DNA of 30,618 bases from a virus (lineage: Duplodnaviria > Heunggongvirae > Uroviricota > Caudoviricetes), in the IMG/VR virus record IMGVR_UViG_2563366903_000024. The stretch is one strand, 5' to 3'. Below the pieces are notes generated by a model. That model was not told where the DNA came from. It saw nothing but the letters and a program-made list of their open reading frames with translations, and made no database searches. Position numbers and translations under genes: made by a program. This document shows positions 2,487 through 20,370 of this stretch, piece after piece (the first letter of the stretch is position 1; each line of letters starts with the position of its first letter).

Positions 2487-3318
2487 CCAGTCTCCCCGAA
2501 TTACTCATTTCATGCAGCGATGACACGATGTCACTGACAGGCGTAACAACGCCCCGACGCTGGCTGGTCAGAATATCGGTTTCCGCTCTGAGTTTATCTC
2601 TGGCAGCGTTGATTCTTTCCCGGTCAGCACGAAGTTTTGGTGCTGTTTCCGCCAGAACGTCCAGCGTCAACAATGAGCGTTCAATTGACTCGATACGGGC
2701 AATATTCCGGTCAAGGGCCTGTTCTGCTTTGAGTATTTTGTCGTACAGGGCAACACGGGTTTCCACGTCAGCCGCCTCTTTCAGGTCGGCGAACATTTTT
2801 TTCAGTGTTCCTGTTACTGAAAGTGCGCGGGCACGGGTGAACACCAGTTCATCGAACAGCACCATATCGGACGCATCATCCATGAGGTTATCTGCCTCAA
2901 GATACTTCGCATATCCACGGTGTCTCACGGCGTGGGTGTTACGGTCGCTAAACCGGGCAACGGGGTGAGGATTGCCCGATCTGCTGTTGCGTTTCGTTTC
3001 TGCCGAATTTGCGCAGTTTTTTGCGCATTTTTCATCACTGCCATCATCGCCGTAAGACTCGTCATTACTGGACTCGTCATCAGCTCCATGCGCATTTTTT
3101 TGTGCGCTTTTTTGAGTGTCAATTTGCGCACTTTTTTGCGCATTTTTCTGCGCACTTTCCTCTGTATTTTTGGGGGAGTTTTTGCGCAGTTTTATGTACC
3201 GACGAGCCGTGCCATAGCAGATATTGTTCTGTCGACACCAGTCCTGAAGTTTTATGCCAGTTCTGGCATGTTCGCGTCGGAATGCCTGCTCCAGTTTTTT
3301 CCAGTCCAGCTTTGCCAT
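2467..3318 (-). CDS. terS: Terminase small subunit (N-terminal HTH, low-complexity QKNAQKSAQ middle)
   Basis: 283-aa ORF immediately upstream of and overlapping terL. N-terminal HTH-like segment (NICYGTARRYIKL). Assignment by position and architecture. Confidence 0.6.
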   Translation of the reverse strand: MAKLDWKKLEQAFRREHARTGIKLQDWCRQNNICYGTARRYIKLRKNSPKNTEESAQKNAQKSAQIDTQKSAQKNAHGADDESSNDESYGDDGSDEKCAKNCANSAETKRNSRSGNPHPVARFSDRNTHAVRHRGYAKYLEADNLMDDASDMVLFDELVFTRARALSVTGTLKKMFADLKEAADVETRVALYDKILKAEQALDRNIARIESIERSLLTLDVLAETAPKLRADRERINAARDKLRAETDILTSQRRGVVTPVSDIVSSLHEMSNSGRLDDIPEE

Positions 3319-8618: not shown

Positions 8619-9713
8619 TTAACTGACACCAGAATCATCATAACCGCGACTTGTTATAGCTTGCCTGTATGCGTTCATTTTGCGTTCTGCGTACTGGACA
8701 ACATCTTTAATGACAAGCTTATGAACAACTGAAATAAGGTCATTTATATAACAAAAGTCAGGTGACTTATTTTTCACTGGCAACCAAATAACATCGTTCT
8801 TAATTTTTCTATTACTAACACTATCCCCCCATGAATATTTATGTGAAATAGACCTATAAATACATGAAATAATGCCCAAATAAGCAAACTTTGTCCTTCC
8901 ATCCTCATTGTTAACATAGAGTCGCAAATTATGACTGTCGTTTGAAAAAAAGTCTCGCTCCTGATAAGTTACAACGAATGTCTTACCACCAATAAAAATA
9001 CAGTTCCCTTTTTCCAAGAGTGAGTCATCATAGGCGATATAAGAACTAACAGAGTTATTATCACGGCTAGCACAAAGATAAGGAACATCCCCACTATTTT
9101 CTATGATGTCTCTAGACAATATGTTTCCTGTATTGCACACTGAGAATAACTCAGTAACAGGAAAGCCTGAAAATTCAATATTTTTAAAATGTTCCAGGAT
9201 AAGATAATCTTTTTCCGTTAGTTGGTAATCACTCAGCCCAGCAGCTATCAGGTATGCTTCCAGCTCTTCTATATGGGCCGCTTCCAGCTCTTCTATATAA
9301 TTATCCATAAAAAACCAGTCAATTTCATTATTTTTCACTGGTAATGAGATGAAATATTCTCCATCTCTGAGTTTGGAACTCGATAACTGTTGACCATAAT
9401 TAAAACGCCCCTTTAAAGCTTTATTAATCATACTGGCAACATACAGTCCGCGCTTTGCATTAAAGTCGGACTTACTTGATTTTAATGTAAGAACATGCAC
9501 CTTCATTTCTACGCTGGCACAATAAGGATGATAAAAAGCATCTCCAAAAAAATTAACGCTTATAAAATTTTCATAATGCCTTGCATCATCCATAAACTCG
9601 GTATCAAACTCTCCGATGATACCGTTTTGATCGCTCTTTGCTGAAACACGTTTGATTTTGCCTGGTTTTAATCTTCCTGAGGAGATAAGCGAGCCTGTGC
9701 TCACATAGAACAA
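8619..9713 (-). CDS. HsdS-like specificity subunit (two target-recognition domains around a helical spacer)
   Basis: 364-aa protein with two-fold internal architecture: each variable half ends in a similar segment (ISLPVKNNEIDWFFMDNYIEELE and IWLPVKNKSPDFCYINDLISVVHKL) followed by a predicted helix. Apparent TTG start with AGGA upstream, 60 nt after the methyltransferase stop. Confidence 0.5.
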   Translation of the reverse strand: MFYVSTGSLISSGRLKPGKIKRVSAKSDQNGIIGEFDTEFMDDARHYENFISVNFFGDAFYHPYCASVEMKVHVLTLKSSKSDFNAKRGLYVASMINKALKGRFNYGQQLSSSKLRDGEYFISLPVKNNEIDWFFMDNYIEELEAAHIEELEAYLIAAGLSDYQLTEKDYLILEHFKNIEFSGFPVTELFSVCNTGNILSRDIIENSGDVPYLCASRDNNSVSSYIAYDDSLLEKGNCIFIGGKTFVVTYQERDFFSNDSHNLRLYVNNEDGRTKFAYLGIISCIYRSISHKYSWGDSVSNRKIKNDVIWLPVKNKSPDFCYINDLISVVHKLVIKDVVQYAERKMNAYRQAITSRGYDDSGVS

Positions 9714-9772: not shown

Positions 9773-11734
9773 TTACTTTCCCGCAAAATTGTTTTCACCT
9801 TGTTTTTTCAGTAATTGCGAGACCTCCCATGCAAGGTAATCACCTACCGTCTTTTTGAAATCCTCCAGCGTTGGCCTAGCATCTACTGGCCTGGTCTGAT
9901 TCCAGTCCTCACCACTATCAGGATCGATTGTTCCCTCAAAATATTCATCCTCCGTAAAGATATTAAGGCAACCTTTCCCGAAGTGAACCAGATCCACAAC
10001 CTCCTGATAACGCTCTTTTGCACGATCGGCATCAACAAGATTGTTTCTTGCCTTTTTGCGATTAGAGCGAGCGTAGCCGTCATTGGAAAAGTCGATAAAC
10101 TTAACAGCCTGTTTCGCGTTATGCGGAATTTTTACCTGAAAAACGTAAATGTACGTCTGAACGCTTGATTTACCAATAAACAGATCCGCAGGCATTTTGA
10201 TGCTTGCCAGCAAGGTATTTTCCTTGAGTATTTTTTTGTTGTACTCCGTAGCCTTTCCTGTGCCAGCTGAACTCTGGATAATCACTGCAGCATAGCCTTT
10301 ATCCATCATCGACAGCGCCTTCTGCACGAAAATCATGCCGTTACCTTTAGCTGAATACGGAGGATTGAGAATAAATGCGTCCGCAGGGAATTTTTCTCCT
10401 GTTTTCCCAAATCCATACTTGCCGTCAAAATCGGCCAGCGAGTCTTTATTGAGGATATTCGAGCTACCATCCCCCATCAAAATCATATTCAGGATGGCCA
10501 GCATATAAATACTGGATAACACCTCAAGGCCAAGAAGCTGTTCAGCCTTGATTTGCGCTTCCTTAAGTTGTAGTTCGTTCGGTGAGTGAATATTTTCTCT
10601 GGCGTCAATGAGCATTTCATTCATTGCAGCCACAAGCAATCCCGCAGAACCTGTAGCAAAATCCCACACATAGGAATCTTTGTTTACTCTGGCGAGTCGT
10701 GCCAGCAATGTGGCAACATAAGGTGGTGTCAGAACGACGTCATTGAGCTTGTCCTGCGTAAATCCAAGCCAGCGATACATCTCATTAAACAGTTTGCCCG
10801 TAAAATCGGTGGTCAGTCCAATTTTGTAATACTCCCCAAGATCATCAACAACTTTAACAAACACGCGCTTTAACTGGCTTTCACCGTTGACTGGTTTGTT
10901 AATGTTTTCAGTCCACAGCGTATTTTGCAACGAGCGCAAAATCATTTCTCTTTTTGTTTCAGGAACAGCTTTCAGCCTTAAAAAATTCCTTATTTTCCTG
11001 AAAATAATATCACCATCACGCAAGTCCTCCTCCGTTGAAGAGGTCAGTTCTTTTTTATCCAGCGGTGCTAACTTTCCCGGAATCCCCAACGTTGCAATAA
11101 CGGTAGCCACAACAAGGTAAACACGATCGCTTTCACCAAGCCCCTTTTCATTCTGGTAAATATCGTTATTCAGACGGGAAAGTCGCGTGTCTATCTCTTC
11201 CTCTTTGCTGGCCTTGATTTTTTCCAGTTCTTCGGGAGGAAGATTAAGCAGCTTTATCTTGTTGAGAAATCCATCAACATTTTTGTCAGCAAGGAACGAT
11301 AAGTCGGTGAATTCACCAACCTTCTGTCCGGCTCCTAAATTATTCTTTGATACGTACCACACGCCGATTTCATGATGCAGTTCGCCTGTACCATCATCGC
11401 GCCAGCCGGTCATACCAATAGCAATAATATCAGGGTAATTGGTGAACTGAAGAAGTGCGTTGGCATAATGGACTGCGCCATTCACCGCGTATCCATTAAT
11501 ATTTTTAAAATTCCATTCTTTTCTGGCATCTTTGTTCTCAATAATACCGTTGCTGCCAAGTCTGATAAGCCTGTCCTTGTAGCCTTTATACTCGATGAGA
11601 ACGGGATACTGCTTGCCGTATTTGTCCTTAACAAGGAGTTTTACGTCGGGACGATTACCGCCTGCGCCGCCATTTTTCGAAAAATAAGCGTCCAGTGCGT
11701 TATCGATCTCTCCGTTAAGTGATGCATTCTGCAA
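9773..11734 (-). CDS. N6-adenine DNA methyltransferase with N-terminal PD-(D/E)xK-like region (BcgI-A-like); body ORF currently out of frame with its ATG
   Basis: 653-codon ORF with AdoMet motif (VWDFATGSAGLL) and catalytic NPPY motif (ILNPPYSAKG). N-terminal third has a possible nuclease motif (RPD…x16…EYK). No ATG near its 5' end; the frame is open upstream through the 7-nt repeat tract. Confidence 0.7.
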   Translation of the reverse strand: MQNASLNGEIDNALDAYFSKNGGAGGNRPDVKLLVKDKYGKQYPVLIEYKGYKDRLIRLGSNGIIENKDARKEWNFKNINGYAVNGAVHYANALLQFTNYPDIIAIGMTGWRDDGTGELHHEIGVWYVSKNNLGAGQKVGEFTDLSFLADKNVDGFLNKIKLLNLPPEELEKIKASKEEEIDTRLSRLNNDIYQNEKGLGESDRVYLVVATVIATLGIPGKLAPLDKKELTSSTEEDLRDGDIIFRKIRNFLRLKAVPETKREMILRSLQNTLWTENINKPVNGESQLKRVFVKVVDDLGEYYKIGLTTDFTGKLFNEMYRWLGFTQDKLNDVVLTPPYVATLLARLARVNKDSYVWDFATGSAGLLVAAMNEMLIDARENIHSPNELQLKEAQIKAEQLLGLEVLSSIYMLAILNMILMGDGSSNILNKDSLADFDGKYGFGKTGEKFPADAFILNPPYSAKGNGMIFVQKALSMMDKGYAAVIIQSSAGTGKATEYNKKILKENTLLASIKMPADLFIGKSSVQTYIYVFQVKIPHNAKQAVKFIDFSNDGYARSNRKKARNNLVDADRAKERYQEVVDLVHFGKGCLNIFTEDEYFEGTIDPDSGEDWNQTRPVDARPTLEDFKKTVGDYLAWEVSQLLKKQGENNFAGK

Positions 11735-11802
11735 CTTGTAATCAAGCCTGTAAGATTTAAGCCATGAGTTCGCCAGTTCGGTAATTTCCGGCTCAACAGA
11801 TT

Positions 11803-11931
11803 TTACAGACTTTCTTGATTTACTGCTGGTCGCTGGTCGCTGGTCGCTGGTCGCTGGTCGCTGGTCGCTGGTCGCTGGTCGCTGGTCGCTGGTCGCTGGT
11901 CGCTGGTCGCTGGTCGCTGGTCTGGCAGCAT
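11803..11931 (-). other. Leader ORF from the RM gene's true ATG through the heptanucleotide tract to a premature stop (OFF-phase product)
   Basis: SD AAGGA lies 7 nt upstream of ATG 11931-11929. Translation reads MLPDQ(RPATSDQ)n through the repeats and stops at TAA 11805-11803, in the 0 frame versus +1 for the methyltransferase body. Confidence 0.6.
11825..11922 (-). repeat. Perfect tandem heptanucleotide repeat, 14 copies (GCTGGTC on plus, GACCAGC on coding strand)
   Basis: Counted directly: 98 bp of uninterrupted 7-nt periodicity between the ATG at 11931 and the methyltransferase ORF body. Confidence 0.95.
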
Positions 11932-12105
11932 AAAATCATCCTTTTATGAAAATCAACGTTTTTTGAGCACTCGCACACAAAAAATTACCGCATTGGTTGC
12001 AACGACAACCTGCATTTTGCGGAGCATATGACAAATAAAGTACGGGTGCGTTGAGGATGCCAGACACATCAGAGGTGGCGGGAGATTACTCCCCTGCCTG
12101 GTCTC

Positions 12106-12261
12106 TTACTTCTCAGATTCGTAGTCTACGAAGACAGCGACCTCCGTCTGGCCGGTTCGGATTCGTACCTCGCAGAAGTCTTTCCTCGTTACCAGTGCTA
12201 TCACTACGACGGTAATACAGATGACGATCAGGGCGATTAACATCGCCTTTTGCTGCTTCAT
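12106..12261 (-). CDS. hok: Hok/Gef-family type I toxin (small membrane peptide)
   Basis: Unlisted 51-aa ORF MKQQKAMLIALIVICITVVVIALVTRKDFCEVRIRTGQTEVAVFVDYESEK, very like E. coli Gef/HokC. SD AAGGAG before the ATG. Confidence 0.8.
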   Translation of the reverse strand: MKQQKAMLIALIVICITVVVIALVTRKDFCEVRIRTGQTEVAVFVDYESEK

Positions 12262-12431
12262 AGCCTACTTCTCCTTGCCTTTCGGCACGTAAGAGGCTAA
12301 CCTAAGTTTGTAAGTCATAGATTTGGCCTCAGATTAATGTTAAGCGTCCTGCAAGACGCGTAATGTTAACTGGGGCTTTTCTCTGTCTGCCTTACGGCTG
12401 CATGCCCGAGGCAGACAGCCTCAAGCACCCG

Positions 12432-12464
12432 CAGCTATTCTACAGTAAAAACTCGCGCTTTCAA
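12432..12464 (-). promoter_or_regulatory. Sigma70-like promoter immediately downstream of Q (candidate late promoter pR' or hok promoter)
   Basis: Minus strand TTGAAA (12464-12459), 16-nt spacer, TAGAAT (12442-12437). The -35 overlaps the Q stop codon. A 10-bp inverted repeat (12383-12392 / 12409-12418) follows. Confidence 0.4.
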
Positions 12465-12886
12465 TTTCCCGCACGTCCGGCAAACTGACTGGCCTGTGAT
12501 CCTGATGGTTCACGCTCAACGTACCTGTCCATTTCCAGCTTTACTCCCTGCATGATCAACATCCCCTCAATAATACCTTCTGCTTTTTGCAGTACCCGCC
12601 CGGCCCAGCAATCAGAGCGCCCATGCTTACGGCCCAGTGACATAAGCGTCATCCCGAACACATAATAATCATACAGAAAATCATGCAAATCGCTGTTGTT
12701 GACGTTCAGTTGCGCCATGCAATTGCTGATAATCAGCGCATCGTCATCGGTACACTGAGGCCGTGATTTAACCTTTGACGGGATCAGCCCCTTAAATCCG
12801 GCGGCAATGGGCGACCAGCTCACATCCTCATGATTATTGGCCACCCATGCGCCCCAGCGTTCAAGCACCTGCTGAATATCACGCAT
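12461..12886 (-). CDS. Q: Late-gene antiterminator Q (phage 21 / DLP12 QuuD type)
   Basis: Protein [45 protein letters not shown]… closely resembles E. coli QuuD. Start at ATG 12886 with SD AAGGGGAAAG, overlapping the NinH stop by 8 nt; the longer track ORF start is rejected. Confidence 0.8.
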
Positions 12887-13079
12887 CAGAGTCTTTCCCC
12901 TTATCCCATCCACGGTGAACCATAAGGACACCGTTGACGACGGCGTGCCGTTTGCCTTCTTTATCACCGACATATTTTCTGACCGTAGCACGATTACAGT
13001 TCAGTTTTCGTGAAACTTCAGTCATATTGCCTCGTGCCTGGATAAGCAATTCCGGTATTGTTTGAATTGTGGCGTTCAT
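12879..13079 (-). CDS. ninH: NinH-like DNA-binding protein
   Basis: 66-aa protein [37 protein letters not shown]…[14 protein letters not shown], like lambda NinH. Confidence 0.8.
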
Positions 13080-20117: not shown

Positions 20118-20370
20118 AGTCCCCTCGCATACAAGATTTACTCCATACCGCAGACGGTCCCGGTATCTCCCGGGTTAACCCAATCGGCTTCAGGCTGCTG
20201 CGGTTGGTGTGACTGCACATTGGTGTGACTGCACATCTTCACAGACGGTCCCGGTATCTCCGGGTTAACCCAATCGGCTTCAGGCTGCTGCGGTTGGTGT
20301 TGTTGCTGGCGAAATTCTTCCAGATGTGGCAGAATTATTCCCGTGTATTGCTCCATGCCCTGCCTGAATA

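Follow-up and report, generated by a model that had tools for sequence, protein, structure and literature searches.

A candidate heptanucleotide phase switch in the 5′ coding region of a prophage-borne Type IIB restriction-modification gene

A tract of 14 perfect GACCAGC repeats lies between the probable start codon and the body of a restriction-modification (RM) gene in a 30,618-nucleotide viral sequence (IMG/VR record IMGVR_UViG_2563366903_000024; hereafter the window, meaning the whole stretch analyzed), which is a lambdoid prophage. We consider it likely that this tract is a slippage-prone simple-sequence repeat in the 5′ coding region and that it acts as a phase switch of the A subunit of the prophage's Type IIB RM system. 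The initial annotation of this DNA had put forward a candidate phase-variable switch at this place, and the proposal is now supported by length variation among strains, by the N-termini of homologues, by purifying selection on the gene, and by the conserved arrangement of Shine-Dalgarno (SD) sequence, ATG, CTGCCA and tract. We infer that slippage is the cause of the length changes, that the changes are reversible within a clone, and that activity is lost in OFF alleles.

The tract and its reading frames

The following features of the window carry the argument.

11943-11939, minus strand: SD sequence AAGGA, 7 nt (TGATTTT) before ATG 11931
11937..11939, minus strand: another ATG, in the third frame, overlapping the SD without spacing; a weak alternative start or non-functional
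11923..11931, minus strand: probable true start ATG (11931-11929) and leader CTGCCA (11928-11923), encoding MLP; based on invariance among allele families and on MLPDQRPATS proteins
11922..11825, minus strand: heptanucleotide tract, 14 perfect GACCAGC units; Tandem Repeats Finder (TRF) and minus-strand regular expression
11735..11824, minus strand: conserved N-terminal coding segment SSKSRKSVKSVEPEITELANSWLKSYRLDYK, from the tract to the first in-frame start candidate; repeat-less homologues, PADLOC, AlphaFold model (AF2)
11803..11805, minus strand: TAA closing the 42-codon open reading frame (ORF) 11803..11931 that runs from ATG 11931 at 14 units; ORF list and translation
9773..11734, minus strand: RM A subunit body in its usual annotation, with a TTG start, 653 aa; Pfam, PADLOC, motifs, dN/dS
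8619..9713, minus strand: S subunit with two target-recognition domains (TRDs), exact start codon uncertain; Pfam, PADLOC

TRF reported a single array at 11825-11922 with period 7, 14.0 copies, 100% matches, 0 indels and a score of 196, and the regular expression recovered the same 14 perfect units, as first described, after AAGGA and ATG 11931. Fourteen perfect tandem 7-mers cannot have come together by chance in 30.6 kb, given a probability that we put at about 4^-91 per position. The minus-strand sequence runs AAGGA, TGATTTT, ATG, CTGCCA, the tract, and then AGTAAATCAAG. Since 7 and 3 are coprime, the tract is read as the identical seven codons in each phase (GAC CAG CGA CCA GCG ACC AGC), so that the heptad DQRPATS is encoded in all three phases. 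The codons of the opposite strand are GCT GGT CGC TGG TCG CTG GTC. Neither set contains a stop, and the tract is thus open in six frames, which bears out the original statement that it is free of stops.

No stop interrupts the body frame (position mod 3 = 1) between TGA 11938-11936 and the stop at 9773, a stretch that includes the tract. The first ATG, GTG or TTG in this frame is TTG 11734, with none between the tract and that codon, so the frame has no early start of its own, as had been claimed. The frame of ATG 11931 ends at TAA 11805-11803 after 42 codons. The distance from 11931 to 11734 is 197, and 197 mod 3 = 2; 15 or 12 units would therefore fuse ATG 11931 to the body, again in agreement with the first reading. 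The third frame starts at ATG 11939, also at GTG 11978, and is closed by TAA 11822-11820; the frame of ATG 11939, a codon that the first reading had overlooked, would join the body at 13 or 16 units. The assertion that 13 copies lead to an immediate stop holds for ATG 11931, which then runs into TAA 11822-11820, but the OFF state of such an allele is uncertain, as ATG 11939 would then be in frame.

Under the proposed switch, translation would initiate at ATG 11931 and continue through MLP and (DQRPATS)n into the conserved N-terminus of the enzyme. Every gain or loss of a 7-nt unit would shift the frame, such that one copy-number class in three would join ATG 11931 to the enzyme, and a second class may join the enzyme to the weak ATG 11939. 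The 14-unit allele of the window would be OFF from both ATGs. With restriction (R) and modification (M) on one polypeptide, a frameshift would turn both off together, which would be safe for the cell, and ON alleles would yield an enzyme with a disordered N-terminal heptad tail of variable length. The outcome would be a stochastic, heritable and reversible ON/OFF contingency switch of a prophage defense/epigenetic system.

The opposite strand of the tract also carries ORFs, which RefSeq labels “hypothetical protein” or “YXWGXW repeat-containing protein” (window 11815-11949, plus strand; loci L003-L019). They were rejected as genes, since their length merely tracks copy number and the tract is open in all frames. 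The plus strand of the tract reads (GCTGGTCG)n, a head-to-tail 7/8 match to the E. coli Chi sequence GCTGGTGG; a Chi-like role was considered, and no evidence for such a role was found.

Copy number among strains

A 711-nt query across the locus was covered in full by 29 complete E. coli genomes. Identity to the query is 99-100% in most of them, but the matches extend over anything from 728 to 1456 bp, and the flanks of the tract are 100% identical in loci H81-H94. Units were counted in 24 of these 29 genomes and in phage PhiR12_3, and the 25 loci carry 16, 23, 23, 30, 31, 50, 54, 56, ~57, 58, 64, ~65, 65, ~73, 76, 79, 83 (four times), 89, ~92, ~94, 99 and 120 units. In complete genomes the range is thus 16-120 units with a median of ~65. 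Prophage contigs of IMG/VR carry 9, 9, 9, 16, 19, 34 and ~102 units, and one NCBI contig carries 3. Overall, the tract spans 3 to ~120 units across 34 E. coli and phage loci with near-identical flanks (99-100%), so the invariance that had been named as evidence against a switch is not what was found.

Differences are also seen between related strains. Symbioflor strains G1/2, G6/7 and G8 have ~92, 83 and 99 units, three O111:H8 strains have 56, 83 and 58, three Okinawa bovine (OkiPb) strains have 23, 30 and 23, and UCPROB-001 has 76 vs 83 in UCPROB-002. Of the Symbioflor tracts, that of G8 is in frame with ATG 11931 and that of G1/2 with ATG 11939, and that of G6/7 is out of frame. The four 83-unit tracts are perfect and come from differently sourced records (L001, L010, L014, L017), namely PhiR12_3 of ECOR13, Symbioflor G6/7, O111:H8 strain 7-32 9A and UCPROB-002, whose sister loci have 31 to 99 units. 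Neither ATG is in frame with the body in 14 of the 34 loci; the upstream ATG (11939) is in frame in 11 and ATG 11931 in nine. A Salmonella enterica contig begins with ACCAGC followed by the conserved post-tract sequence, which indicates that Salmonella also carries the locus.

For the window itself, the count of 14 units, and hence the OFF state, might be an assembly artefact, with the tract of the source strain in fact longer or heterogeneous. We think this rather unlikely, while giving it an appreciable chance. All complete genomes counted have 16 units or more, many public short-read contigs break off inside the tract, and a k-mer graph would be expected to collapse a longer array at about 98 nt. 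Against an artefact, short alleles that a read can span do exist (3, 9, 16 and 19 units), and the window crosses the tract into unique sequence on both sides. The matter bears on the present state and not on the nature of the element: the description of the gene as currently OFF is right in that 14 units are out of frame with both ATGs, but it hinges on correct assembly of the repeat.

The site of translation initiation

The window encodes SSKSRKSVKSVEPEITELANSWLKSYRLDYK-L(TTG)-Q, such that ~25 conserved residues lie upstream of the sole possible internal start. Homologues without the repeat, which are 72-73% identical over their full length, have a Met just before S(I/V)EPNIADLANGWLKSY, and this Met aligns upstream of TTG 11734. 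Their N-termini read MTQASKKSNKSIEPNIADLANGWLKSY (longer, MTQASKKSNKSIEPNIADLANGWLKSYKLDYRLEQ) in Neisseria, MARLQSVEPNIADLANGWLKSY (longer, MARLQSVEPNIADLANGWLKSYNLDYKLEQ) in Providencia and MAQSIEPNIADLANGW (longer, MAQSIEPNIADLANGWLKSHKLNYKLEQ) in Methylophilaceae. As the repeat-less homologues start upstream of the equivalent of TTG 11734, translation must begin upstream of the tract. Residues N19, W21, L22, L27 and Y29 are invariant in 35 sequences, and the match to the PADLOC family profile begins at residue 10, likewise upstream of TTG 11734. In the AF2 model, residues 11-40 have a predicted local distance difference test (pLDDT) score of 82-91 and form a helix (11-24) and a strand (29-31), which precede the strands of D60 and E78-x-K80 and constitute the first helix and strand of the nuclease domain.

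Proteins of ON alleles are present in the databases. P0004, P0006 and P0009 begin with MLP(DQRPATS)n joined to the body, and P0010 begins with MILCCQTS(DQRPATS)n joined to the body; the existence of such proteins runs counter to the lack of a protein difference between alleles that the first account had named as evidence against a switch. The annotation pipeline PGAP placed the start of the 16-unit allele of strain 04-00955 upstream of the tract, and in the 3-unit allele L174 the body is in frame from the equivalent of ATG 11931 and reads MLPDQRPATS. Furthermore, the SD, ATG 11931 and CTGCCA show no variation among four allele families, between which identity is only 79-99% over the 160 nt upstream and 79-92% over the 300 nt downstream. 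ATG 11939 is ATA in two loci (L009, L154). From these comparisons, ATG 11931 is probably the real start codon, and ATG 11939 may at best be a weak alternative.

The tract could instead be an untranslated leader or spacer, with the enzyme made from a downstream start (TTG 11734) and with a length that is neutral or tunes transcription or mRNA stability. In favor of such a leader, the 653-aa TTG product is what PGAP and RAST give for most genomes, the profile phrog_13671 begins at the TTG residue, and the phase distribution looks neutral. However, the 30 codons before the TTG are conserved in repeat-less homologues that have their Met further upstream, they correspond to the confidently predicted helix and strand and are covered by the family profile, and TTG 11734 lacks an SD. 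In the second allele family the TTG is absent, and annotators fall back on a 569-aa start inside the nuclease domain; the annotated starts thus look like artefacts of OFF alleles. The SD, ATG and CTGCCA right before the tract are moreover invariant across diverged alleles. No evidence for a start downstream of the tract was found, with homologue N-termini, PADLOC profile and AF2 model all pointing the other way, and we regard an untranslated leader as improbable.

Two side observations concern the same region. The PHROG profile phrog_13671 starts at query residue 31, the TTG residue, and the truncated annotation of the OFF state has thus been built into a family model. An in-frame SNK repeat distinguishes the Neisseria homologues P0097 and P0046 at this N-terminal position (MTQASKKSNKSNKSNKSIEPN vs MTQASKKSNKSIEPN), which suggests that the extreme N-terminus tolerates repeat expansion in Neisseria too.

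Maintenance of the gene and the tract

The ratio of nonsynonymous to synonymous substitution rates (dN/dS) of the body was estimated in three allele comparisons as 0.054 (dS 1.30), 0.058 (dS 0.56) and 0.20 (dS 0.09). A dN/dS of about 0.05 means that purifying selection on the gene body is strong. The body ORF (~677 codons) is intact in every examined allele. The purity of the tract is 93-100% across diverged alleles, as would be expected if continual slippage or unequal exchange homogenizes the array. The recognition domains of the S subunit differ among alleles, as they would in a functional RM system whose specificity diversifies.

That the tract is a neutral, unstable variable-number tandem repeat (VNTR) that inactivated the gene, leaving the RM system a decaying prophage pseudogene and the repeat length without function, would fit the 14 of 34 alleles out of frame with both ATGs, the lack of an excess of in-frame alleles and the rarity, to our knowledge, of repeat-based switches in E. 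coli, but it is highly improbable given an intact body under such constraint at dS up to 1.3, an intact S gene with differing TRDs, the retention of tract, SD and ATG across allele families including that of Salmonella, and a tract free of stops in every frame, where a pseudogene would gather stops and tract impurities.

Several observations weigh against a phase switch. The 14/11/9 phase split is indistinguishable from one third each, so neutral drift fits it and ON alleles are not enriched; the distribution shows free movement between phases, and selection is not demonstrated by it alone. The recurrence of 83 units either speaks against an extremely fast rate of mutation or points to common descent. 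The length differences are known from comparison between strains, and irregularities of 1-3 nt in 7/26 long tracts, possibly long-read errors, make some phase calls unsure. Tails of up to ~280 residues are unusual for an enzyme, and, as discussed above, the 14-unit count of the window could reflect assembly collapse. Finally, a promoter scan and reading by eye from the upstream hok gene to the start codon found no convincing sigma-70 consensus promoter; transcription may consequently depend on upstream promoters, including pR′/Q.

The restriction-modification system

The initial annotation had called the body of this RM gene a methyltransferase. A methyltransferase is indeed present, but it is fused to a nuclease in a Type IIB/IIG A subunit and is accompanied by a separate S subunit. 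Pfam reports N6_Mtase (5e-21) in the A subunit, together with a weak N-terminal VRR_NUC/PD-(D/E)XK match, and in the 683-aa translation that follows the tract, PADLOC classifies residues 10-675 as REase_MTase_IIG (E = 3e-232). Four motifs are invariant in 35 homologues: P59-D60, E78-Y79-K80, D388-F-A-T-G-S-A-G and N487-P-P-Y. They were assigned to a PD-(D/E)XK nuclease (D60, E78-x-K80) and a gamma-class N6-adenine methyltransferase (DFATGSAG, NPPY). The S subunit matches Pfam Methylase_S (1.3e-19) in two stretches and PADLOC Specificity_II (9e-21). The neighbors of the RM pair are hok and a phage esterase gene, with no helicase gene or HsdR-type motor subunit there.

A Protein Data Bank sequence search with the A subunit matched no solved chain, and an NCBIfam search gave only sub-threshold matches to hsdM and MAD2. 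The AlphaFold model of the A subunit has a mean pLDDT of 66 and a predicted template modeling (pTM) score of 0.46, and its confident N-terminal part alone was used. The best Foldseek matches of the model, with low TM-scores, are Type I HsdM subunits, BsaXI, aligned over the full length (Type IIB; ~685 columns, E 4e-9 to 2e-8), and BpuSI (Type IIG). The RAST annotation of phage PhiR12_3 names the gene “BcgI alpha chain-like”. Its domains and motifs mark the system as BcgI/BsaXI-like Type IIB, an A + S pair in which a single polypeptide combines R and M.

Across S subunits, the central and C-terminal conserved regions are common to the alleles. The window S (8619-9713) differs from that of L174 (4696-5775) in the N-terminal TRD, and the Salmonella S subunit (L173 2109-3221) has only 31% identity. 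The L174 and L173 S subunits carry a duplicated EELEA(A/S)HIEELEA spacer motif.

Prophage context

The minus-strand gene order is NinB, Ant, RusA, Q, a pR′-like match, sok/hok, RM-A, RM-S, a DUF1737/SASA esterase (8008-6056), holin and endolysin. The RM locus thus occupies the slot between Q and the lysis cassette, where Shiga toxin (Stx) phages carry stx. Three features lie upstream of it.

12991-12461, minus strand: antiterminator Q (Pfam Phage_antitermQ 1e-47)
12464-12437, minus strand: pR′-like promoter match (promoter scan, TTGAAA-16-TAGAAT, 10/12)
12106..12430, minus strand: hok toxin gene (12261-12106) and sok RNA region, directly upstream of the RM gene (Pfam HOK_GEF 7e-22)

The Q/pR′-like region (12437..12991) is the sole candidate transcription source found upstream. 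The sok RNA matches Rfam RF01794 with 118 bits at 12256-12430, and the hok segment shares 95% identity with its counterpart in 933W, Sakai and other Stx phages. A plasmid-borne locus was rejected because a plasmid search matched only the hok part. In several locus-bearing genomes (L008, L009, L012, L023) hok is annotated as frameshifted; that of the window (12106-12261) is intact. No tRNA genes were found in the window. Elsewhere in the window, TRF reported a 12/24-nt repeat, TTTGCGCA(C/G)TTT, at 3008-3032 and 3089-3158, and a 16-mer, TTGGTGTGACTGCACA, in two perfect copies at 20204-20236.

Comparison with known systems

The closest parallel is neuO of prophage CUS-3 in E. coli K1, termed a “mobile contingency locus”, which has a 5′ heptanucleotide VNTR of AAGACTC, 2 nt after the start codon and in 2-93 copies (PMC3046976). 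It is ON only at copy numbers divisible by three, and its disordered RLKTQDS tail makes the enzyme more active the longer it is (PMC3046976). Both are E. coli prophage genes with a heptanucleotide VNTR in the 5′ coding region after the start and one ON class in three, and in both, three units encode one N-terminal, disordered heptad. They differ in unit and heptad (AAGACTC/RLKTQDS in neuO, GACCAGC/DQRPATS here), in the distance of the tract from the ATG (2 nt vs 6 nt), in the enzyme (a hexapeptide-repeat polysialic-acid O-acetyltransferase vs an RM enzyme) and in the phage (P22-like vs lambdoid). There is no sequence homology, and neuO is a functional analogue rather than a family member.

The A subunit resembles BcgI and BsaXI in having an N-terminal PD-(D/E)XK domain, a gamma-class N6-adenine methyltransferase and a separate HsdS-like subunit with two TRDs; we know of no repeat tract in either enzyme. 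The lic1 locus (licA) of Haemophilus influenzae, which Weiser et al. are said to have described in 1989, reportedly has a tetranucleotide tract with upstream ATGs in two frames. ATG 11931 and ATG 11939 of the window are likewise in two frames and could give strong, weak or no expression by phase. A difference from lic1 is that ATG 11939 abuts the SD and is mutated to ATA in two alleles.

Phasevarions involve Type III mod genes and Type I hsdM/hsdS genes of Haemophilus, Neisseria, Helicobacter, Streptococcus suis and others that are switched by coding-region repeats (PMC5909438, PMC7383803). The present locus shares with them a coding repeat in a methyltransferase gene, whose length change shifts the frame and, in the present case presumably, turns methylation ON or OFF. 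Phasevarion genes have mono- to penta-nucleotide units and separate restriction subunits and are chromosomal genes of host-adapted pathogens, whereas the present locus has a 7-nt unit, far longer arrays, a prophage location and a Type IIB enzyme with fused R and M. The survey text on Type I repeats contains no E. coli entry and no GACCAGC unit (PMC7383803). Cj0031 of Campylobacter jejuni is described as a phase-variable Type IIG RM enzyme (PMC4889913). It is similar in that a fused restriction-methyltransferase is switched as a whole by a repeat tract, with R and M lost together, and it differs in having a homopolymeric G tract and a single chain with its own recognition domain, in lacking an S subunit and in not being prophage-borne.

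The open-access literature yielded no report of the locus, of GACCAGCGACCAGC, of its complement or of DQRPATS, which is not proof of novelty, and the literature on multilocus VNTR analysis, on PhiR12/ECOR13 and on RM systems of lambdoid prophages held nothing relevant. A 28-mer scan of species-representative genomes mostly found tracts in unrelated high-GC genomes (Planctomycetota and others). The GACCAGC unit itself is therefore not diagnostic, and a match in Pectobacterium alone is informative. A search with the repeat peptide, suppressed by low-complexity correction, gave 7 weak and uninformative matches.

In Pectobacterium carotovorum DSM 30168 (NZ_FQWI01000003.1; L035 6506-6650), 17 GACCAGC copies encoding DQRPATS begin 2 nt after an ATG that follows a strong SD, AAGGAGA. 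The reading frame of the tract continues into an unrelated adenine methyltransferase of the EcoRI family (PF13651, E = 1e-130), of which ~120 homologues without the repeat exist elsewhere, and the NCBI protein for this gene has a non-ATG start just past the tract. GACCAGC/DQRPATS could then recur as a 5′ switch module, perhaps a portable one, in front of DNA-modifying enzymes of Enterobacterales, although we find this doubtful. With such a module, the two start codons might yield three expression levels, and the length of the heptad tail might tune enzyme activity, by analogy with NeuO. Switching might form methylation-defined subpopulations (a phasevarion) in lineages of enterohemorrhagic and enteropathogenic E. 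coli (EHEC/EPEC), and turning ON in an unmethylated cell might cause breaks and an SOS response, coupling the switch to induction of its own prophage.

Significance

The switch mechanism is well known; the locus seems to be undescribed. Phase variation in E. coli is classically attributed to DNA inversion or Dam methylation, not to repeat slippage, and neuO is the one well-studied repeat switch in the species that we know of. What sets the present locus apart is its host (E. coli, Salmonella), its carrier (a lambdoid prophage, in the stx slot), the class of its enzyme (Type IIB) and its arrays of up to ~840 bp. If the proposed switch is real, it would be a second prophage-borne heptanucleotide switch in E. 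coli, and one that controls a defense/epigenetic system.

The gene has been systematically mis-annotated, with truncated TTG or internal starts, spurious “YXWGXW repeat” ORFs and a PHROG profile of truncated proteins, and short-read assemblies break at the tract. With near-isogenic genomes in different phases publicly available, the switch hypothesis can be tested directly on existing data of PacBio or Oxford Nanopore Technologies.

Carriers of the locus include EHEC/EPEC serogroups (O111:H8, strain E110019), probiotic Symbioflor strains and Salmonella. If the locus switches as proposed, a lysogen population would contain both restricting and non-restricting cells, which would hedge phage defense against DNA uptake, with consequences for phage therapy, for plasmid spread and for the interpretation of methylomes.

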